A stretch of 64,000 bases of DNA from an uncultured Bdellovibrionales bacterium (lineage in GTDB: Bacteria; Patescibacteriota; Minisyncoccia; Moranbacterales; UBA9337), in NCBI GenBank assembly GCA_964605525.1, contig CAZSCV010000006.1, positions 434 to 64,433 of the forward strand, given 5' to 3'. The position numbers and the translations under genes were made by a program. This document shows positions 2,329 to 56,069 of the stretch, in pieces. Every line of letters starts with the position of its first letter. The first letter of the stretch is position 1. The notes under the pieces were generated by a model. That model was not told the origin of the DNA. It was given only the letters and a program-made list of their open reading frames with translations, and searched no databases.

Positions 2329-3567
2329 TTACAAACACCAATCAGTTCCGGACATATCCAATCCAATTGAATTTCTCAATATTAACATCGCGTCTGTTGT
2401 GTTGGTCGTATCATCACAATTCACATCCCCGGTATTAACAGAATCATACCAGCTAGTCAGACTCATATCCATTCCTACAGAACTTCTCAAAACTAATTGA
2501 GCGTCCGTAGTATTGCTCACTCCATTTTGATCAACATCGCTTCGTTCAGTAGCGACAATCGCGCTTTCAACAACAAAAGACGTAACCGGCAAAACATTGG
2601 AAACATTTCCGGCAGCATCAGTCACTGTAATTGTACAATCCGAATATGTTCCATCTGCCAAAGAACTGAATGTAGTGGTATTATTTCCCAAAACAGCTGT
2701 CGTATTAATACTACTGCACGATCCTCCAAAAGTAATAGTTCCTGCCTCTGTTGAACTGAAAACATAATTCGGGGTACTATCGCTGGTTGGAGTTGCAACC
2801 GGAGTAATTTCTTCCAAAACTGGAGCAGTTAAATCCAAAGGATTAACCGTGATGCTCGCGTCAAGGACGCTTTGCAAAATATCCGTTCCAGCACCATCAT
2901 CCGCAATCACATCACTATCGTCATAACTTCCAACTGAATTAAAACTTAGTGAGATACTCTTACTTTCAGCAGAACTTTGAAGCGCTTGGAAACTTACAGT
3001 AGCCACAACCCCGGAAGACAAATTAACTCCAGGAGTAGGTTTTGCAACTGTAATATCCAAAATTCCATTCACTGTATCATTACTGACTATCTCACAAGTG
3101 CGATCCGGGTCATCCACATCACTACAATCCAATCCATTATCAAAAACAGAATTGGTCAAATCCCATCCTGTCATCTGAAAAAAAAGCGGATCATATTCAA
3201 TTATGGCTCGCGCGACAACCGCATCACTGCCATTAGTATCAACAATGACATCCAAATCAAAAACATCCCCTTCTGTGACAGCAAGAGAGTTTTCTCCGCT
3301 CTGAGAATCCAGTAAAGAAAGAGAAACTTCGTCAGCGGCGCTGGACATATTTTGAATATCCAACGAAACAGTCAGAATAACACTAACAAAAGCTCCAGCA
3401 ATAAAAGCCAGCATAAAAACACCCTTCCATGTTTTTATTTGTGTTTTTTTGGTAAAAACATACGTTTTTCCAAGCCAGGAATATGTCTGCCCAGCCACTT
3501 CATCAATCTTTCTCTTCTTAGGAGAAGATAGAAATGGTCCATTTTCATCTTTGTTTTTTGTTTCCAT
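2329..3567 (-). CDS. Membrane-anchored protein with cohesin-like domain, Big-like domain and C-terminal type-I dockerin repeat pair
   Basis: N-terminal TM helix. The cohesin-like block is FDLDVIVDTNGSDAVVARAIIEYDPLFFQMTG and the Ig-like block is SLADGTYSDCTITVTDAAGNVS. The two C-terminal segments DVDQNGVSNTTDAQLVLR and DVNCDDTTNTTDAMLILR match the dockerin Ca-binding repeat D-x-N-x-D-G-x-V-N-x-x-D. Confidence 0.6.
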   Translation of the reverse strand: METKNKDENGPFLSSPKKRKIDEVAGQTYSWLGKTYVFTKKTQIKTWKGVFMLAFIAGAFVSVILTVSLDIQNMSSAADEVSLSLLDSQSGENSLAVTEGDVFDLDVIVDTNGSDAVVARAIIEYDPLFFQMTGWDLTNSVFDNGLDCSDVDDPDRTCEIVSNDTVNGILDITVAKPTPGVNLSSGVVATVSFQALQSSAESKSISLSFNSVGSYDDSDVIADDGAGTDILQSVLDASITVNPLDLTAPVLEEITPVATPTSDSTPNYVFSSTEAGTITFGGSCSSINTTAVLGNNTTTFSSLADGTYSDCTITVTDAAGNVSNVLPVTSFVVESAIVATERSDVDQNGVSNTTDAQLVLRSSVGMDMSLTSWYDSVNTGDVNCDDTTNTTDAMLILRNSIGLDMSGTDWCL

Positions 3568-4129: not shown

Positions 4130-5287
4130 CTAGAAAAAGTTCTTTATCTTTTCAAAAAAACCCAGATTTGAAATATCCCGAAATGTAATGACGACCATAA
4201 GAATAATCAGAAATAAAAATCCTGCCGTATGCGCCAATTGCTCGAAATTTTTACTTACTGGAGACCCTTTTATTTTCTCAATAAGGATAAAAAATACCCT
4301 TCCGCCGTCCAATGCCGGAAAAGGAAGCGCGTTTATGATTCCCAAATTTATACTCAAGATAGCCGCAAATTGCAAAACATATACCAAGCCCAAAGCGGCG
4401 ACTTGCTTGGTAATAATCGCAATCCCAACCGGACCGGAAATATCCAAAGGAACGGATGATTTCACGAAAAGCATTTTCGCCAAAGCAAACAGAGCGCCCA
4501 AAATCATCATCACGAAATCAATAACTGCCATAAATCCTTTTGTGATAGACTGATACCATGGATACTTCACCATTGCAGTCCTGGCAAGAGAAATTCCTAA
4601 TGAACCCTGATCCGCCGGATATTCCATTCGAGGAACTCCTTTCAATTTCAAAATCTCATCTCCCCTTTTTATTTCCATTAAAATTTCCATTCCTTTACTG
4701 GCAGAAATAAAATCCTGGACTTGGACTGTTTTTTCAACCGAAATACATCCAGACCCGCTCGCCGCACAAAGTTTCGAAATTTCATCCCCCACTTTCAAAC
4801 CCATTTCCATTGCCGGAGTATTTTCCAAAACTTGGGAAATTTGCACTTTGGGCGAAACAACACTTGCGTCATCGCTAATGGATTCCGGCGCTCCCATCAC
4901 AAAAATTGCAGAAAATAGAAGCCATGCCAACAAAAAATTCATTATCACTCCAGCAGACAAAACCTTGATTCTTACCCAGGCAGATTTTGCAGAAAAACTA
5001 TCTTTTTCATTTTCTCCCTCCCCGTTTTCTCCTTTTATTTTCACAAATCCTCCCAAAGGAATCCAATTAATGGAATAAACAGTATTTACAGATTCAATCT
5101 TTTTATTTCCAAACACCAATTTAAATCTTCCCGTCTTCTCACTGCGCACGAATCCAAAAATTCTCGGAGGAAACCCAAATCCGAATTCATCTGCTTTGAT
5201 TCCGTTGCGAATCGCCATTACAAAATGTCCCAATTCGTGCACGAAAATCAAAACTCCCAATATTATGATAAAAATTAAAATATTCAT
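4130..5287 (-). CDS. rseP: RIP metalloprotease RseP (site-2 protease, M50 family) with PDZ domain
   Basis: HELGHF zinc motif in the first TM, multi-TM architecture and the LDGG motif. Confidence 0.85.
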   Translation of the reverse strand: MNILIFIIILGVLIFVHELGHFVMAIRNGIKADEFGFGFPPRIFGFVRSEKTGRFKLVFGNKKIESVNTVYSINWIPLGGFVKIKGENGEGENEKDSFSAKSAWVRIKVLSAGVIMNFLLAWLLFSAIFVMGAPESISDDASVVSPKVQISQVLENTPAMEMGLKVGDEISKLCAASGSGCISVEKTVQVQDFISASKGMEILMEIKRGDEILKLKGVPRMEYPADQGSLGISLARTAMVKYPWYQSITKGFMAVIDFVMMILGALFALAKMLFVKSSVPLDISGPVGIAIITKQVAALGLVYVLQFAAILSINLGIINALPFPALDGGRVFFILIEKIKGSPVSKNFEQLAHTAGFLFLIILMVVITFRDISNLGFFEKIKNFF

Positions 5288-5450
5288 TGTAAAAAAATTT
5301 CTAATTATTAATTTCTAATTTCTAAACAAATCCCAATTATCCAATGTTTAAATTTCAAAACATTGAAACATTTTAAAATTAAAAAATTGATTTAAAATTG
5401 GAAATTAGAAATTAGAAATTTATAAAAATTATGCCCAACATAATTTTTAT

Positions 5451-9207: not shown

Positions 9208-9238
9208 AATAATTTGCTCGATTGAATAATGAAGCTCT

Positions 9239-9347
9239 CGGTTTTCCGGAAAAATGTTTTTTTCGCAGCTGTCCGTGTCCCTCGAAAGGACCGGAGAAAA
9301 AAATATTTTTCCGGAAAACCATCTGGAGACTACCTGAATGCGCAAGT
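9239..9347. repeat. 108-nt intergenic repeat, copy A (copy B at 18490..18598)
   Basis: About 90% identity to 18490..18598 (cggttttc[c/t]g[g]aaaaatgtttttttcgcagctgtccg[t/c]gtccctcgaaaggaccggagaaaaaaata...acgcaagt). It contains a short hairpin GTCC-N7-GGAC. Confidence 0.6.
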
Positions 9348-9401
9348 CTCAAAAGAAAGAATAACATATTCAAAAGGGACAATTGGAAAAAGAAAAATTT
9401 A

Positions 9402-10862
9402 TTATTTTTTGGAATAACCCACAAAAAATCTTATTAGCCCCAAAATAATCCAGAAAAATATTCCCAACAAATTGGTTTCTAAATATGGTTGAAACAAAAA
9501 AACAATCAAATAATTTACTGCTAATGCAATTAATACAAAATCAATCCACTCTTTTTCTTTTTTTTCAACCAAACTTTTCAAAGTCAAAAACACAAACGCA
9601 ATCAACGGTAAAAACAAAATCAATCCACCTTGCAAAAGAATCGCCAAAAGTGAATTATGCACGTTGCGCACTTCAACCAAATCTTGATAATCCCCCAGCT
9701 CCAGTGAAAGCTTTTTCCCCAAACCAATTCCAACCAGCGGATTTTCTCTTATTTTCTCCCCCGCCTCCAACCACAACATTCCCCGCCAAAAAAAACTTTC
9801 ATCTTCCGAAAAACTGGAAAAAGAAGCTGTTCGCTTTCCCAAAACCTCAACGGAATAATCAATTCTCTGATCAATTTTTGAATTGGGAATAATCGCGGAA
9901 AGATAAAAAACAAAAACAATAACCGTCGCCGCACCAAAAATAATTTTCCCGGCATAATTTTTCAAAAATAGCCTTTTTTCTTTTGGCAAGAAAAAAATCG
10001 CAACAAAAGCAGAAAGAGCTAGGCCAATCCAAAGATGGCGCATCATCGATCCAATGATTCCAAAAATCCAAATCGGAAGCAACCAAAAATATTTGCGATA
10101 TTTTTTTGCCAAAGAAAAAACCAAAAATATTCCCAGCGTCAAAACCGCCATTGTCAAATAGAAAGCGTGCGGAAATGCCAACAAGCGAACCCCCTCGGTG
10201 GAAAGCGGAGTAAACTCCGACCACAAACCCTGCCCGGAAATAATTCCATAAATAATAAAAAATATAATACCGATTGCGCCTGCCAAAGCGAATTTCAAAA
10301 ATCTAACCAAATGTTCTTTTTTATTTAGCAAAATAATAACAGCAAAATACAATAGCGCGTAAAACCCATAATTCTTCCAAGCGGAAAAAGCCAAATCTTT
10401 GTCAGAATTCGGATCAAAAAAACTGGCTAGGAAATATATTGAAACCAAAAATATAAAAACAATCAAGAGCCAATCGACCGCTCTTATCCCCCTCTTCCTT
10501 TGGGAGAGGGTTGGGGTGAGGGTTCGTATGGAATGCGTATTTTTTAAATAATTAACCGCTATTCCCAAAATGACAGCCAAAAAAATCACGTCCAGCGGAT
10601 AAAATTTAATTTCACTACGCGACAGTACAATCGGCGCCAAAGTGAAAAATCTTTCAAAGACAAAAGTCAAAAACACAATCGCAAAAAGTCCACTTCGCGG
10701 ATGCGCCGCGACAATCGCAAAACTTGTCAGCATCAAAACCAAATACAAAGGCAAAGAAAATCCAAACGCAAAATTGGAAAAAATAAACAAAGAAACAGCC
10801 ACGATCACAAAAATTGCACTCACCGTTTCTCTATTCATTTTTTGCAACCAGACGTAAGACAT
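9402..10862 (-). CDS. O-antigen ligase / Wzy-like polytopic membrane protein
   Basis: 486 aa with about 10-12 TM helices and a periplasmic loop, a typical WaaL/Wzy architecture. The family call comes from topology only. Confidence 0.45.
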   Translation of the reverse strand: MSYVWLQKMNRETVSAIFVIVAVSLFIFSNFAFGFSLPLYLVLMLTSFAIVAAHPRSGLFAIVFLTFVFERFFTLAPIVLSRSEIKFYPLDVIFLAVILGIAVNYLKNTHSIRTLTPTLSQRKRGIRAVDWLLIVFIFLVSIYFLASFFDPNSDKDLAFSAWKNYGFYALLYFAVIILLNKKEHLVRFLKFALAGAIGIIFFIIYGIISGQGLWSEFTPLSTEGVRLLAFPHAFYLTMAVLTLGIFLVFSLAKKYRKYFWLLPIWIFGIIGSMMRHLWIGLALSAFVAIFFLPKEKRLFLKNYAGKIIFGAATVIVFVFYLSAIIPNSKIDQRIDYSVEVLGKRTASFSSFSEDESFFWRGMLWLEAGEKIRENPLVGIGLGKKLSLELGDYQDLVEVRNVHNSLLAILLQGGLILFLPLIAFVFLTLKSLVEKKEKEWIDFVLIALAVNYLIVFLFQPYLETNLLGIFFWIILGLIRFFVGYSKK

Positions 10863-14411: not shown

Positions 14412-14457
14412 TGTCTTACGTCCTACATTTTACGTCTTATGTCTTACGTCTTACGTC
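14412..14457. repeat. Heptamer tandem repeat (GTCTTAC-like) x about 6
   Basis: ctgtcttacgtcctacattttacgtcttatgtcttacgtcttacgtct. Related to the (GTCTTAA)n array at 19788..19858. Confidence 0.6.
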
Positions 14458-14461
14458 TATC

Positions 14462-15157
14462 CTAAAGTTCATTCAAACTTTCCAAATATTCCTTTTCTTC
14501 CCGTGGCAATCCCATTGTTGCAAAATAATACGCCCACATCGCGCTTAAAATCACGCCAACCAAAAATCCTCCAACCACGACAGCAACTATTTCTTTGACG
14601 CTCGGATTCTTTTCCCAAATCGGTCCCGTCAAAATTTGCACATGCAAATCCGCCTTGTCTTGCAAAACACTTCCCCCATTTTCCATTACTTTTGCAATCG
14701 CGTTGGAAATTTGCACTGCCTCTTTTTGGCTATTGGCAAAAACTTCAAAACTCACGATTCCATATTGAAACTTTCCGCCTACTTTTACCATTTGCCCCCA
14801 CTCTTGCAATCTTTCCTTTCGATCAAAAGGAAGAAATTCAGAGTTCACCTCTCCGGTTTTGACAACTTGATCAATGAAAAGCTCGCTATACACAACTTCC
14901 CCCAAAACTCGGTTCACATATTCAGCTGATTTGAACACGGAATAAAAATCTTTTGAGTCCTCCCCGCCGGTCGGCACTACCAAATAATCAGTAGAAGCCT
15001 TGAAACTTTTTTGACTTACTACCAAAAAAAGAAACGACAAGGCCGCCACCAAAAATCCAAAAAGCAACAGCGTTCCGATTTTTTGCCTATTTTTAGCCTT
15101 TATTTCCCAATTAGACATATCATTATTCCATTTATTATTAATATGAGATTGTAGCAA
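14462..15157 (-). CDS. Wzz-like polysaccharide chain-length determinant / co-polymerase family protein
   Basis: One TM near the N-terminus (GTLLLFGFLVAALSFLFLVV), about 150 aa of periplasmic domain, and a C-terminal TM (IVAVVVGGFLVGVILSAMWAYYF). The start may be the internal Met at 15118. Confidence 0.45.
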   Translation of the reverse strand: MLQSHINNKWNNDMSNWEIKAKNRQKIGTLLLFGFLVAALSFLFLVVSQKSFKASTDYLVVPTGGEDSKDFYSVFKSAEYVNRVLGEVVYSELFIDQVVKTGEVNSEFLPFDRKERLQEWGQMVKVGGKFQYGIVSFEVFANSQKEAVQISNAIAKVMENGGSVLQDKADLHVQILTGPIWEKNPSVKEIVAVVVGGFLVGVILSAMWAYYFATMGLPREEKEYLESLNEL

Positions 15158-18461: not shown

Positions 18462-18489
18462 AACCTGCATAATTAAATGACAAGACTCC

Positions 18490-18598
18490 CGGTTTTCTGA
18501 AAAAATGTTTTTTTCGCAGCTGTCCGCGTCCCTCGAAAGGACCGGAGAAAAAAATACTTTTTCGGAAAACCATACGAAAATTACCTGGATACGCAAGT
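18490..18598. repeat. 108-nt intergenic repeat, copy B
   Basis: See copy A at 9239..9347. Confidence 0.6.
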
Positions 18599-19733: not shown

Positions 19734-19787
19734 ATTACTAATTACTAATATATACAAATTTACGAATGATACTTATACCCTAAATTT

Positions 19788-19858
19788 AAGTCTTAAGTCT
19801 TAAGTCTTAAGTCTTAAGTCTTAAGTCTTAAGTCTTACGTCTGTCTTACAACCCCAGT
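19788..19858. repeat. Heptamer tandem array (GTCTTAA)7 plus GTCTTAC variants
   Basis: Seven perfect tandem GTCTTAA units followed by GTCTTAC units, immediately 5' of the GT4 gene start on the minus strand. Confidence 0.8.
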
Positions 19859-20052
19859 CCGGAATATGCCGAGCTCATCGTGCTCAAAAACCACGGAATA
19901 ATCGCAATCAAACCAATAAGCGGAAGCAAAACCGCCCCGATGGAAATTATCATCGTCCAAAGAAAATACTTGCGCGTTTTTTCCACAGAAACAAAAATCT
20001 GTTCCAATTTTTCATCTTGCTGTTTGAATTTTTCCAAAATATCTTGTTCCAT
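19846..20052 (-). CDS. Small hypothetical membrane protein
   Basis: 68 aa with a charged N-terminus and one TM helix. Weak. Confidence 0.25.
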   Translation of the reverse strand: MEQDILEKFKQQDEKLEQIFVSVEKTRKYFLWTMIISIGAVLLPLIGLIAIIPWFLSTMSSAYSGLGL

Positions 20053-20115: not shown

Positions 20116-20260
20116 TCATTCTGGCAAGGACAAAATAATAAAATATTTTTCTTACACTGTCTTTGTGCAGTCAGGATAAATTATTTTTGCGCAAACCAAC
20201 CGAGCGTTTAAAATATATATCTACTAAATCCAAAAGGGACACTTGGAAGAAAAATATTTT
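20116..20260. mobile_element. MITE-like element (145 bp) with 27-bp terminal inverted repeats
   Basis: ggacaaaataataaaatatttttcttac at 20116..20142 matches the reverse complement of 20234..20260 (ggacaaaacaataaaatatttttcttcc). Internal blocks (tgtctttgtgc, caaaccaaccga, ccaaaagggaca.ttgga) are shared with the element at 53157..53309. Confidence 0.45.
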
Positions 20261-21026
20261 ATTGTTTTGTCCGGTTTAATTTTTCCGATCCTACATTCAG
20301 GTTCAGTTTCTGCAAAAATTCCGCCAATTCTTCGCCAACAAGCTCCCTCTTTTCTCCTGCATGCAAAGCGCCCAATTTAATACTCATTACTCTCGTCCTT
20401 TTCAAATCAAGCACCCGATAATCCAGCGCACTGCACATTCTCCTGATCTGATGGCGTTTTCCTTCAGAAAGAACAATACTAAAAGTATAATCATCTATTT
20501 TCCGAGCCTTGCACGGTTTGGTAATTTCTCCGCCCTCCAAATCCATTCCCCCGCAAACAATACGGAAAAACCGGTCCTTCAGTTTTTTGTCCACACGCAC
20601 TCGATATTCTTTTTCGTGGTCATATTTCGGATCAAGAAGTTTTCCTGTAATCCTTCCGTCATTAGTTGCGACAATAAGCCCGTGCGAATCCTTGTCGAGT
20701 CGCCCAACCGTAAAAACTCCCTCGGGAAAATCCGCAATATCTGCCACGCTTTTTTCTCCTTCAGCAGGACTCACTGTTACAATCCCTATGGGCTTGTTAA
20801 AGACAAAATATTGCAATTTCTTGAAATTTTTAACTTTCTTACTCACATCCACCTGGTCGCCTTCGGAAACCTTGTCCCCCACTTTGGCGTTTCTGCCGTT
20901 GATTTTTACCAACGAACGCGCCACCAAGACGTCTGCCTCCCGCCGGGAACAAATTCCTTTTTGCGCCAAATACTTGTTAATCCTCATCGGATACTCGTTT
21001 TTTTCTGCATTTTTAATTTCATTCAT
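20259..21026 (-). CDS. rluB: rRNA pseudouridine synthase (RsuA/RluB family) with S4 domain
   Basis: S4 domain (RINKYLAQKGICSRREADVLV) and the catalytic motif VGRLDKDSHGLIVATNDG. Confidence 0.85.
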   Translation of the reverse strand: MNEIKNAEKNEYPMRINKYLAQKGICSRREADVLVARSLVKINGRNAKVGDKVSEGDQVDVSKKVKNFKKLQYFVFNKPIGIVTVSPAEGEKSVADIADFPEGVFTVGRLDKDSHGLIVATNDGRITGKLLDPKYDHEKEYRVRVDKKLKDRFFRIVCGGMDLEGGEITKPCKARKIDDYTFSIVLSEGKRHQIRRMCSALDYRVLDLKRTRVMSIKLGALHAGEKRELVGEELAEFLQKLNLNVGSEKLNRTKQ

Positions 21027-21174: not shown

Positions 21175-21429
21175 ATATTCAATTTTCAACACTTAATAAA
21201 TACTATACCAAACTTTTTCAAAAATCAAGAAAAAAGACAAATAAAAAATGCTACGGGATTTTCCAATAGCATTTGCTCGCTTGCGCGATAAGAAGACGAA
21301 TTGCCTTCTTTATGAAAAAGAACAAATTCTTTGCCTATATTTTCAGGATTTGTTTTTCGAGAGAAAAACAGGAATAAGATTCATTTGAACCTATTTCTTT
21401 CCTTTTTTCCTTTTTGAAAAAATAGACAA

Positions 21430-25908: not shown

Positions 25909-25999
25909 ACAGATAATTTACAATTTTCAATTTTCAATTTTCATTGAATTTTTAATTGATCAATTTTTCAATTTTAAAACTCAATAAATAATTAATACT

Positions 26000-28848: not shown

Positions 28849-29139
28849 TTATTCTTTCTCCATTTTTATCGCTTTAAACGGACATTCCACCGCGCACACT
28901 CCGCAACCTTTGCAAAAATCCATATCAACATTGGCAAGTTTTTTGAATTTTGAATCATCTCGCCTTTCCCGCAAATTAATCACCGCTTCCGGACAATACT
29001 TAACACAAGTGCCACAACCGGTACACTTGTCCTTGTCCACTTCCGGACGCACATTCCGCCAGTTCCCAGTCTTTGGCGCCTTCGAAAGATCATGCTTTAT
29101 TGTCGCTCCAGCAAGTTTTTTGTTCATTTTAGAATTCAA
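28849..29139 (-). CDS. porD: Pyruvate:ferredoxin oxidoreductase delta subunit (2x[4Fe-4S] ferredoxin)
   Basis: Two CxxCxxCxxxCP motifs. Confidence 0.8.
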   Translation of the reverse strand: MNSKMNKKLAGATIKHDLSKAPKTGNWRNVRPEVDKDKCTGCGTCVKYCPEAVINLRERRDDSKFKKLANVDMDFCKGCGVCAVECPFKAIKMEKE

Positions 29140-29191
29140 AAATTTAAAATTGTTTAGAAATTAGAAATTGAAAATTAGAAATTACCTATTC

Positions 29192-30128: not shown

Positions 30129-30172
30129 AATATTCTCCTTTCTATCCTTGTTATATGAATTTTACTTTCAAC

Positions 30173-30326
30173 ATCCAAAATATAATTTTTATAAAAATTT
30201 TTGGAGGGAACCTTGCAGAATTTACAAACTTATTTGAGGTTTTATTATTGGGAATATATTTCCGCATAAACCATAAAAATCGTGACCTGGTACCGGAAAT
30301 TTTTATAAAAATTATATTTTGGATGT
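30173..30326. mobile_element. Inverted-repeat element: 28-bp perfect terminal inverted repeats flanking about 97 nt (MITE-like or large stem-loop RNA)
   Basis: catccaaaatataatttttataaaaattt at 30173..30200 is the exact reverse complement of 30298..30326. Confidence 0.4.
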
Positions 30327-30355
30327 AGTGCTATTATCTTCATAATTTAAAAGAA

Positions 30356-30390
30356 CAAAAAAACCGGTCCGAAGACCGGTTTGTTTTTAT
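30356..30390. terminator. Bidirectional intrinsic terminator
   Basis: A7-ACCGGTC-CGAA-GACCGGT-T(G)T5. Confidence 0.6.
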
Positions 30391-41103: not shown

Positions 41104-41517
41104 TACCAAGGCAAATCTATAAGCCGGATTCTGTACTCCGACGCGAGGTCGGAGTGGCAATCATTTATCTAGCTCCGGCGTTACCGTCGGAGTCAAGCGG
41201 CACCCCCCGGCAAAATGCCGAGGTACGGCCTTGCATTCAAGTAAGGATTTAGCCGTTTCACCTCTTATATTACTATAAGAGCTTATCCCCCGTGAGGGGG
41301 ATATTTTATTTCTTTCGAAATAAAACGTCTCTGCTCGCACCTCTTGGGTTTCCCCATGACGGGCGTTACCTCCGACGATTTTTCAATGTCGGAGCTCCGC
41401 ACCCTTTAGAGCGTCGGAGCCGCTACCCTGCTCCCTGGTACAAAACCAGGGGAATGTCCGGACTTTCCTCTCCGCCGATGCAAAGCATCAGCAGAGCAAT
41501 TGCCCAATTTGCCTTGA
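41104..41517 (-). ncRNA. rnpB: RNase P RNA (bacterial type A)
   Basis: The minus strand carries GAGGAAAGUCCGG (P4 5' strand, plus 41458..41470), ACAGAAUCCGGCUUA (P4 3' strand, plus 41120..41134), AGGGUGCGGAGC, and a P1 pairing CAAGGCAAAU/AUUUGCCUUG. The region is about 410 nt and GC-rich. Confidence 0.8.
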
Positions 41518-52634: not shown

Positions 52635-53114
52635 TTGACACATCCGACGCTTCGTCCTAAACTGAAACAACGTAAAAAATATTCCGCTAATCCTTCAAGA
52701 AAAAAAATAATGTCCCAAAAAAAATTTCAGGAAAAATTCAAAGTGAAAAAATCCGGCTCCGGACTCGGTCTTTTTGCCGAAAAAGATTTTAAAAAAAATG
52801 ACTTCGTAATTGAATATACCGGGGAAATTATTTCTGAAAAAGAAGCCGAGAAACGCCAAGGAAAATATCTTTTTACCATAAATTCAAAGTGGTGCATCGA
52901 CGGAAAAGAAAGAAAAAACATCAGTCGCTATATCAATCATTCTTGCCGACCAAACTGCGAAGCTCGCTTATCGGGAAAAAAAGTTTTTATTTATGCCAAG
53001 AAGAAAATCCTCCCGGGAGATGAGTTGACTTACAATTATGGAAAAGAATACTTTGACGAATTCATCAAGCCTTATAGTTGCAAATGCCAAGCTTGCCAAA
53101 AGATACCATTTTAA
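52635..53114 (+). CDS. SET-domain protein lysine methyltransferase (likely start at 52710, MSQKKF)
   Basis: GLGLFAEKDFKKNDFVIEYTGEII, the NHSCRPNC motif, ELTYNYG, and a post-SET CKCQAC. Confidence 0.75.
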   Translation: MTHPTLRPKLKQRKKYSANPSRKKIMSQKKFQEKFKVKKSGSGLGLFAEKDFKKNDFVIEYTGEIISEKEAEKRQGKYLFTINSKWCIDGKERKNISRYINHSCRPNCEARLSGKKVFIYAKKKILPGDELTYNYGKEYFDEFIKPYSCKCQACQKIPF

Positions 53115-53156: not shown

Positions 53157-53309
53157 TTTTAAAAAAAATAATAAATTTTTATTTTTACTCTTGTCTTTGT
53201 GCGTATAAAAAAAGAACTCCGTACTCAAACCAACCGAAAATTAGAAAAACAAGATAAATATAGCCAAAAGAGGCAATTGGAAAAATAAAAATTTATTATT
53301 TTTTTAAAA
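53157..53309. mobile_element. MITE-like element (second copy of the family at 20116..20260)
   Basis: The 30-bp terminal inverted repeats ttttaaaaaaaataataaatttttattttt (53157..53186) match the reverse complement of 53279..53309. Internal blocks are conserved with the other copy. Confidence 0.45.
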
Positions 53310-53319
53310 TTTATATTTT

Positions 53320-53760
53320 TCAAATATCAACCAAGAATAATTTATTTTTCAATTTCGAGGACTTATATATCTCTGATTTGTATGCTTTCAAGCGAAAAAT
53401 CTCCGTTTTATCCAATTCAAACTCCCTTAATTTTTCTTCCAACTCTTCAATAAAAAATTTCTGGTCATATCCCAAGCAAATCACGTCCGGTTTGTGCTTT
53501 TTTATGATTGCATATTTATCTCCCAAACCTCCCAAAACAACTTCGTCCGCCAAGGCGCTTTTCTGAATCATTCTCATTCGTGCTTGTTCCTTGTTTTTTG
53601 TATCTTGTTTTTTGAAAACTTTGACTGTTTTATCCCGCGCCACGACCACAATCAAATAATCCCCGAATTTCCTTGCCTGCCGCAAAAAACTCCGGTGCCC
53701 CGGATGGAAAATATCAAAAGTCCCGAAAACCATCACTTTCTTTTTTCCGCTCTTATCCAT
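53320..53760 (-). CDS. Cytidylyltransferase-family nucleotidyltransferase (HxGH; TagD/RibL-like)
   Basis: VMVFGTFDIFHPGHRSFLRQAR. The size of 146 aa is typical of glycerol-3-P cytidylyltransferase or FAD synthase (RibL-type). Confidence 0.65.
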   Translation of the reverse strand: MDKSGKKKVMVFGTFDIFHPGHRSFLRQARKFGDYLIVVVARDKTVKVFKKQDTKNKEQARMRMIQKSALADEVVLGGLGDKYAIIKKHKPDVICLGYDQKFFIEELEEKLREFELDKTEIFRLKAYKSEIYKSSKLKNKLFLVDI

Positions 53761-55445: not shown

Positions 55446-55488
55446 TCATATTACCATATTTTGAAATGTTGAAATATTGTAATATTTC
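55446..55488. promoter_or_regulatory. About 43-nt direct repeat with operator-like palindrome (copy 1, upstream of maf)
   Basis: tatcatattaccatattttgaaatgttgaaatattgtaatatttc is identical to 56026..56069 and contains ATTACCATAT-N13-ATATTGTAAT plus GAAATATTGTAATATTTC. Confidence 0.55.
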
Positions 55489-56025: not shown

Positions 56026-56069
56026 CATTATTACCATATTTTGAAATGTTGAAATATTGTAATATTTCT
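56026..56069. promoter_or_regulatory. About 43-nt direct repeat with operator-like palindrome (copy 2, upstream of the TrpR-like gene)
   Basis: Identical to 55446..55488. Confidence 0.55.

Follow-up and report, generated by a model that had tools for sequence, protein, structure and literature searches.

The window, by which we mean the whole 64-kb stretch of DNA that was analysed, has a G+C content of 38% and a plus-strand GC skew of -0.24, and carries nearly all of its genes on the minus strand. RNase P RNA and three tRNAs were the only RNAs found in it with Rfam and ARAGORN (Table 1). Genomes of the candidate phyla radiation (CPR) are about 1 Mb in size, streamlined and usually called poor in mobile DNA. 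The window belongs to a CPR bacterium of the Moranbacteria lineage and corresponds essentially to one contig of "Parcubacteria group bacterium Athens0714_25": protein P0121 is 100% identical to its SerRS, and its RluB occurs in GCA_007376775.1. At three places in the window we found a short repeat, named family A, at or beside the stop codon of a gene. The 3' arm of copy 1 contains the last four codons and the stop codon (20259-20261) of rluB. Copy 2 lies between a convergent SET-domain gene (stop at 53114) and the cytidylyltransferase gene (stop at 53320), and its end is 10 nt from the latter stop. The third copy, a 3' half copy or singlet, has the stop codon (9402-9404) of a Wzy_C-domain gene inside its arm. 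It comprises block iii with the preceding ~23 nt of core spacer and the 3' arm, lacks the 5' arm, and adjoins on its left a unit of a second repeat, family B.

The repeat had been noticed in a first-pass annotation, which placed both full copies directly 3' of minus-strand stops, as is indeed the case. Copy 2, given there as 53157..53309, was recovered at almost the same position, and the partial third copy is real and slightly larger than described. For copy 1 the annotation recognised the repeat correctly, but its coordinates (20116..20260) lie 12 nt too far left.

Table 1. Positions of the features discussed, in window coordinates unless another contig is named
Feature	Position	Strand	Remarks
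Family A, full copy 1	20128..20272	+	145 nt; covariance model 147.9 bits
Copy 1, closing stem	20128-20152 / 20248-20272		25 bp, one U.G
Copy 1, block i	20158-20168		TGTCTTTGTGC
Copy 1, block ii	20192-20203		CAAACCAACCGA
Copy 1, block iii	20231-20248		CAAAAGGGACACTTGGAA
Family A, full copy 2	53158..53309	+	152 nt; covariance model 148.2 bits
Copy 2, closing stem	about 53161-53185 / 53282-53305		
Copy 2, block i	53192-53202		
Copy 2, block ii	53226-53237		
Copy 2, block iii	53265-53282		
Family A, 3' half copy (singlet)	9348..9410	+	block iii at 9371-9388
Family A, full copy in L002	7470..7623		
Family B unit (108-nt repeat)	9221..9347	+	hairpin 9240-9320
Family B, second copy	18472..18598	+	hairpin 18491-18571
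Family B hairpins in L002	2038..2118, 2918..2998, 4553..4634		
Family-B-like hairpin in L087	1594..1682		
SET-domain gene	52635..53114	+	opposite strand; inserted between the cytidylyltransferase gene and serS
RNase P RNA, bacterial class A	41104..41515	-	Rfam, 113.7 bits
tRNA-Lys	7222		
tRNA-Gln	21103		
tRNA-Thr	26570		
Deletion site in GCA_007376775.1	53130..53244		
Deletion site in GCA_007376775.1	54181..54211		
Deletion site in GCA_007376775.1	about 21249..21273		
Deletion site in GCA_007376775.1	about 14908..14932		

The family A unit, 145-154 nt overall, consists of an A/T-rich closing stem of 25-30 bp around a core of ~95 nt. The core runs TGTCTTTGTGC, 23 nt, CAAACCAACCGA, 27 nt, CAAAAGRGRCANTTGGAA, with identical spacings in both full copies; the shared internal blocks listed by the first-pass annotation are exact. 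Within the window TGTCTTTGTGC and CAAACCAACCGA (exact matches) each occur twice and CAAAAGRGRCANTTGGAA three times, against 0.17 expected for the last, and none of 100 shuffles attained the counts of CAAACCAACCGA or CAAAAGRGRCANTTGGAA. The arms of copy 1 (20128-20156 and 20244-20272) are 29 nt long and 93% complementary. Those of copy 2 measure 29-39 nt and are 76-87% complementary, varying with the register, and the fold of this copy has 24 contiguous pairs, with a single A bulged out.

Family A is small, non-coding and multi-copy, with two full copies and one partial copy in the 64 kb. Short open reading frames within it are not alike from copy to copy. A conserved small core ORF was rejected: the minus-strand mini-ORFs have 23, 11 and 11 codons and lack a ribosome-binding site, and the plus-strand frame is interrupted in copy 2.

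Searches for further copies, mobilising genes and signals

A scan of 185,579 GTDB species genomes with the exact two-block pattern gave three hits, one of which is real, a full copy in a contig (L002) of a Candidatus Moraniibacteriota MAG. The looser three-block pattern gave 55 hits in JGI metagenomes, all of them chance matches in coding DNA, and more divergent relatives may escape this pattern. Every hit from two scans of IMG/VR was rejected by the covariance model, and blastn found no match in phage and plasmid collections. The covariance model was built from the three full copies, recovers them at 148-162 bits, and detected no further member of family A, whether in the window, on L002 or among some 200-300 kb of DNA from congeners and more distant Moranbacteria. 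The tally is 2.5 copies in 64 kb and only three full copies among all collections searched. No Rfam family matched the element at gathering thresholds over the whole window; at E <= 10 per locus only miRNA-precursor-like hairpins appeared, scoring 26.7 and 26.4 bits against thresholds of 140 and 83. A literature search on such repeats in Patescibacteria or CPR bacteria returned nothing relevant.

No transposase, recombinase, HUH or reverse-transcriptase domain was detected in the sizeable ORFs of the window, which were scanned or were covered by precomputed Pfam calls on overlapping contigs. This agrees with the first reading, in which the window held no transposase. Nine window ORFs had no Pfam hit, and NCBIfam added only a weak glycosyltransferase-like match among them; PF01797 (RAYT, Y1 HUH transposase) had no hit in the 64 kb. 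That reading had also envisaged more copies and a parental insertion sequence (IS). One further full copy was found, in L002, and no IS with matching ends was found in the window, in L002 or in the related loci scanned with the covariance model (about 300 kb). Target-site duplications, which it had proposed to look for, are likewise absent: no direct repeat flanks any of the three full copies (left and right flanks ggcaa/ggttt, ttcag/tttat and ttcag/caaac).

Transcription signals and known RNA classes were also considered. An intrinsic terminator was rejected, neither strand having a G+C-rich stem followed by a T-run. A promoter-like AAGACA-N17/18-TATTAT points outward on the minus strand at the left end of both window copies, with a match frequency equal to chance, and no convincing promoter or terminator was predicted on the plus strand of family A. 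The genes downstream of the elements are unrelated (a 68-aa membrane protein, an M32 peptidase, none), and a riboswitch or leader was therefore rejected. Resemblances to retron, 6S, SRP and Y RNAs were dropped for want of a reverse transcriptase, an Rfam signal and conserved synteny. The attC motifs R'/R'' (GTTRRRY / RYYYAAC) are absent from both strands of all three full copies.

Folding, covariation and strand of the hairpins

Compared with shuffled sequences, the native folds of copy 1, copy 2 and the L002 copy have z-scores of -7.5, -4.9 and -6.9, and in none of the three did any of 200 shuffles reach the native stability. We examined covariation in these same three full sequences. Both sides of the pair have changed in 9 of the 36 predicted pairs, and standard pairs occupy 99% of the pair cells, compared with 88% when the partners were shuffled and 54-68% when the register was slid; the observed values were attained in none of 500 shuffles. 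Arm identity among the copies is 62-82%, and within each copy the stem is 96-100% complementary. The outermost 4-8 bp differ wholly among the three copies (GGAC / TTTTAAA / TTTTCTG), the ends being the least conserved part of family A and the core blocks invariant. The first-pass annotation described inverted termini; inverted arms are present, but conserved family termini are not, since the ends vary with compensatory changes.

Over their whole length copies 1 and 2 are 65.5% identical, and copy 2 and the L002 copy 81.6%. The copies in this genome therefore represent old, diverged subfamilies and no recent MITE burst. Terminal repeats that decayed independently would carry many mismatches at this divergence, indicating that something maintains the complementarity of the arms. 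Possible causes are selection acting on the single strand when folded, selection on the element as it is copied, and homogenisation from arm to arm. Perfect helices of 25-30 bp exceed what selection on RNA structure usually keeps, which favours the second or the third of these.

All ten elements (four of family A and six of family B) have one orientation relative to the adjacent co-directional genes. In all six family B copies the better-folding strand is the one antisense to the genes; its G.U pairs number 15, as opposed to 5 for its complement. In family A a second helix, P2 (UGUCUUU / AGRGRCA), is paired on the plus strand in 24 of 24 cells through G.U / A-U exchanges. The minus strand offers a bulged alternative P2 and has the lower minimum free energy (MFE) in two of the three copies, so that the predicted choice of the plus strand as the folding strand of family A is only suggestive. 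The favoured, wobble-tolerant strand is C-rich and antisense to the genes. By the usual skew rule the C-rich strand is the leading-strand template, and the favoured folding strand is thus probably that template.

Family B, orthologous sites and assembly variants

The family B unit has a stem beginning GGTTTTCCGGAAAAAT and a core, GCAGCTGTCCGTGTCCCTCGAAAGGACCGGAG, of 31 nt, unlike the ~95-nt core of family A, and its ends are conserved, again unlike those of family A. The first-pass annotation had called this 108-nt repeat unrelated to family A. However, its closing stem (GGTTTTCYGRAAAAAT...) aligns with the family A arms, most clearly with those of the L002 copy and copy 2, and the family A covariance model cross-hits every family B hairpin at 25-36 bits. 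The homologous stems together with the cross-hits indicate that families A and B belong to a single superfamily that shares its stem but not its cores. Several features of family B were observed in passing. In the 8-kb L002 contig it occupies almost every intergenic gap, in one orientation throughout; a G.T wobble is kept at a conserved stem position; and the outer 16 nt, GGTTTTCC/GGAAAACC, are a perfect palindrome by themselves. The left flank and 5' arm of copy 1 at 20121..20151 (CTGGCAAGGACAAAATAATAAAATATTTTTC) are 77% identical to 9281..9311 (CTCGAAAGGACCGGAGAAAAAAATATTTTTC), which is the 3' half of a family B core plus its arm; this likeness could reflect a chimeric origin or merely shared A/T-rich arm sequence.

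The window contains other intergenic repeats and hairpins. At 30171..30326 lies a candidate family C, in which an A/T-rich stem of 30 perfect base pairs (ACATCCAAAATATAATTTTTATAAAAATTT) encloses a core of 96 nt without similarity to A or B. This element has no Rfam match, and its MFE is -50.3 kcal/mol on the plus strand and -41.4 on the minus strand; a terminator-like hairpin (30355-30385) flanks it on one side and a small minus-strand gene on the other. Tandem heptamers GTCTTAA / GTCTTAC occur at 19769..19862 (about 10 units), between a GT4 glycosyltransferase gene and the 68-aa gene downstream of copy 1, and at 14413..14464 (about 6 units). Three A/T-rich blocks (5295..5425, 25911..25972 and 29126..29187) are made of AGAAATT / AATTTCT heptamers and match one another, inverted and direct, over 58-62 nt at 73-80%; they may be another dispersed intergenic motif.

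We compared the sites of copies 1 and 2 with those of relatives. In a genome with the same order of SerRS, SET and cytidylyltransferase genes (L089), the convergent stops are 33 nt apart, versus 205 nt in the window including copy 2. Where SerRS is 91% identical (L085), the site holds a 72-nt spacer and the SET gene is absent; where it is 83% identical (L087), the site holds a family-B-like hairpin. In the closest relative at rluB (L060, RluB 91% identical), the element after rluB is absent, RluB is 8 aa shorter, and the gene is followed by an ordinary G+C-rich terminator-like hairpin and by other downstream genes. Family A is therefore missing from orthologous loci of relatives with 83-91% identity in SerRS or 78% in the SET protein. 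It behaves as small interspersed repeats do, in being sporadic, leaving remnants and donating stop codons, and it is no conserved locus-specific gene. As a separate observation, the SET-domain gene is present in the window and in L089 and absent at that site in L085 and L087, and its last 30 nt (GCCAAAAGATACCATTTTAAAAAAAATA) resemble block iii and the 3' arm of copy 2.

Independent assemblies were compared at the same loci. Three ENA assemblies (L091, L093 and L094) are identical to the window at the copy 2 locus, and one ENA contig stops exactly at the left edge of the copy 2 hairpin. The orientation is the same in all five independent assemblies of that locus, and in L059 for copy 1. One NCBI contig, VMGV01000016.1 (L092), lacks 115 nt, comprising 27 nt of flank, the 5' arm and two thirds of the core; the 3' half that is left has its boundary no more than 3 nt away from that of the half copy at 9348. 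This deletion is reminiscent of the asymmetric excisions of REPINs (PMC3116915). However, relative to the window and the ENA assemblies, the MAG concerned (GCA_007376775.1) has repeat-less deletions of 115, 31, 25 and 23 nt (sites in Table 1), one of the small ones breaking the Ham1 gene, and the 115- and 31-nt deletions both begin directly after AAAATACTCC. Given the other small deletions in this MAG, and with three ENA assemblies intact, the 115-nt variant may be an assembly artefact and is not relied on as an excision product. The same contig also lacks exactly the 531-nt segment, with a Trp_repressor-family gene, that in the window lies between perfect 40-nt direct repeats (55449..55488 and 56029..56068).

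Nature of family A and its likeness to known systems

With moderate confidence, we regard family A as a small interspersed repeat of the same kind as REPINs, Correia and ERIC elements, non-autonomous and dependent on a hairpin. It is repeated, folds beyond chance and has co-varying arms; it occupies varied intergenic sites beside stops and is absent from the sites of relatives. In addition, half-copy remnants occur, stop codons and C-terminal residues are donated to host genes, and no mobilising gene lies in the 64 kb. Against this reading stand the low copy number and the lack of a target-site duplication, and against the likeness to REPINs the fact that invariance is found in the core instead of at the ends. 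Movement of the IS200/IS605 type is disfavoured in that the wobble-tolerant strand is the C-rich one, opposite to the rule. The "MITE-like" label of the first-pass annotation holds for a short, non-coding, dispersed and intergenic repeat with inverted repeats; it does not hold for conserved termini and target duplications, the two defining tests that family A fails as a classical TIR-MITE. A hairpin-dependent repeat of the REPIN/Correia type is the better fit.

A classical MITE would be an internally deleted derivative of a DDE-transposase IS, moved by cut-and-paste through its terminal inverted repeats (TIRs) and leaving target-site duplications. The size, the inverted ends, the intergenic sites in several contexts, the truncated copy and the lack of coding capacity all suit such an element, as do the common arms and different cores of families A and B, a pattern of MITE families derived from one IS. 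We nevertheless consider it unlikely. The termini vary in a compensated way that independently decaying TIRs would not show, direct repeats are missing from the flanks of the three full copies, and an IS with matching ends was found neither in the window nor in L002 or related loci. Cut-and-paste TIR elements normally insert in either orientation, and all ten A and B elements have one. A structured non-coding RNA, either a small RNA gene or a cis-acting 3' or 5' UTR element, on the plus strand or within the minus-strand operons, has somewhat more to commend it but is still rather doubtful. The long stem would then serve as a helix for RNase III processing or for stabilisation, with function residing in the conserved core, in keeping with the co-varying closing stem, the invariant core blocks at fixed spacing, the fully paired P2 on the plus strand, the better same-strand folding of family B with its excess of G.U pairs, and the strong z-scores. 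However, there is no Rfam match even at E = 10, the element is absent from the orthologous loci just described, and the neighbouring genes differ every time, which excludes a riboswitch or leader. The perfect stems are longer than selection on RNA structure normally keeps, the folding strand of family A is ambiguous, the plus strand has no convincing promoter or terminator, and with three sequences the covariation statistics are limited to the stem.

We consider it very unlikely that the element is a site for a site-specific recombinase, whether the promoter segment of an inverton or an attC-like folded site at the 3' ends of exchangeable genes. The arms remain identical to each other while the copies diverge, as if recombination homogenised them, and the elements lie directly after or overlapping stop codons, at synteny breakpoints beside variable genes (SET, glycosyltransferases, a Wzy-like ligase). 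Like the bottom strand of an attC site, the strand that tolerates wobble pairs is antisense to the genes and presumably lies on the leading-strand template, and a promoter-like AAGACA-N17/18-TATTAT lies inside the element. However, no recombinase or integrase gene was found in the 64 kb, the ends lack the attC R'/R'' motifs, and extrahelical bases are absent. Every copy and assembly shows the core in one orientation, with no inversion seen; copy 1 follows a housekeeping gene, rluB; and the promoter matches are at chance level. A broader version of this idea, in which families A and B together are strand-specific folded recombination or processing sites of an undescribed CPR system, seems slightly less improbable to us. 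Such elements might be single-strand sites similar to attC or structured antisense RNAs, and the locked orientation (10/10), the position at gene 3' ends and synteny breakpoints, and the proximity of variable surface-glycan and SET genes suggest that they may mediate gene gain and loss or transcript processing. Finally, the first-pass annotation named low-complexity AT-rich sequence as the alternative that would undo its claim, and the elements might in that case be ordinary bidirectional terminators. The arms are indeed A/T-rich, the genome has 38% G+C, and terminators with A- and T-tracts occur elsewhere. Yet exact blocks of 11-18 nt at identical spacing, with counts never reached in shuffles, together with the z-scores of -4.9 to -7.5, show that AT-rich low complexity is no explanation. 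A copy 82% identical in an unrelated MAG contig (L002) and the lack of a G+C-rich stem with a T-run also contradict it, and we regard a chance likeness as negligible.

For the favoured reading, a hairpin-dependent interspersed repeat, a mechanism can be proposed. New copies would arise from a single-stranded fold-back intermediate of DNA or RNA, copied by a trans-acting enzyme whose gene presumably lies at another place in the genome. Copying would be restricted to masters in which the hairpin and the core blocks, the latter being likely protein-recognition sites, are retained, and this would account for compensated arms together with old divergence between subfamilies. The uniform orientation might come from strand-specific insertion, or from selection on effects on neighbouring transcripts. 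Such effects could involve the long double-stranded RNA stem as an RNase III target or transcription block, or possibly the outward promoter-like motif at the left end.

Family A enlarges a class of bacterial repeats that is already well known, and it defines no new principle; to our knowledge, and as far as our literature search goes, such repeats have not been described before in this phylum. It belongs to a hairpin superfamily that comes and goes between close relatives in streamlined genomes and rewrites the 3' ends of genes, supplying the stop codons of rluB and the Wzy-like gene, and whose perfect stems of 25-30 bp persist despite 35% sequence divergence. Together, these properties point to a trans-acting copying or recombination activity. 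The elements offer a practical way to mark strain variation and probably cause breaks in contigs, as suggested by the ENA contig that ends at the hairpin.

Among known systems, family A works like REPINs or Correia elements, and it is no demonstrable member of either. REPINs, which depend on RAYT (TnpA-REP tyrosine HUH) proteins, are also short, non-coding and extragenic; their mobilising enzyme is not adjacent, and they likewise consist of two inverted arms and a spacer that form a long hairpin in single-stranded DNA or RNA. Several families with one architecture occur per genome, as here. Compensatory changes are frequent in REPIN hairpins, and REP singlets are remnants of REPINs (PMC3116915), so that compensatory changes and half copies are common to both. 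In contrast, REPINs have invariant 16-mers at their ends and a variable spacer, whereas family A has invariant blocks in its ~95-nt core and variable arms. REP-RAYT systems carry a conserved REP at both ends and number tens to hundreds of copies; the ends of family A are its least conserved part, its stems, at 25-30 bp, are longer and consist almost wholly of A/T, and its copy number is seemingly low. We know of no RAYT for this lineage. The strand expected to be active in single-strand transposition of the IS200/IS605 type is also opposite to the one favoured here.

Integron attC sites resemble family A in that structure is conserved over sequence in their stems, they lie at or over the upstream stop, and the folding strand is antisense. 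The folding bottom strand of an attC site also lies on the leading-strand template. Such sites have R'/R'' sequences, extrahelical bases and an integrase. In family A the R'/R'' sequences and extrahelical bases are absent, and no integrase was found in the window; its stems are fully paired and its neighbours include housekeeping genes. The imperfect palindromes of 100-150 bp known as ERIC/IRU, RUP and BOX occupy transcribed intergenic regions, are patchy among strains and sometimes supply stop codons or C-terminal extensions (reviews PMC2229807, PMC10969869). Family A differs from these in sequence and in phylum (candidate phyla radiation), and its orientation bias and fully compensated long stems are untypical of them. 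The Correia elements of Neisseria (CREE / NEMIS) are about 100-155 bp long, with ~26-bp inverted repeats around a conserved core, as in family A; they are intergenic, often co-transcribed and encode no transposase, and their hairpin is bound or cleaved by RNase III. Correia elements can also form outward promoters at their ends (PMC2649163). Their termini are conserved, with TA duplications and hundreds of copies per genome, whereas the termini of family A co-vary, its copies are few and no duplication is seen; the two have no sequence similarity and share the plan of a conserved core within long inverted arms.
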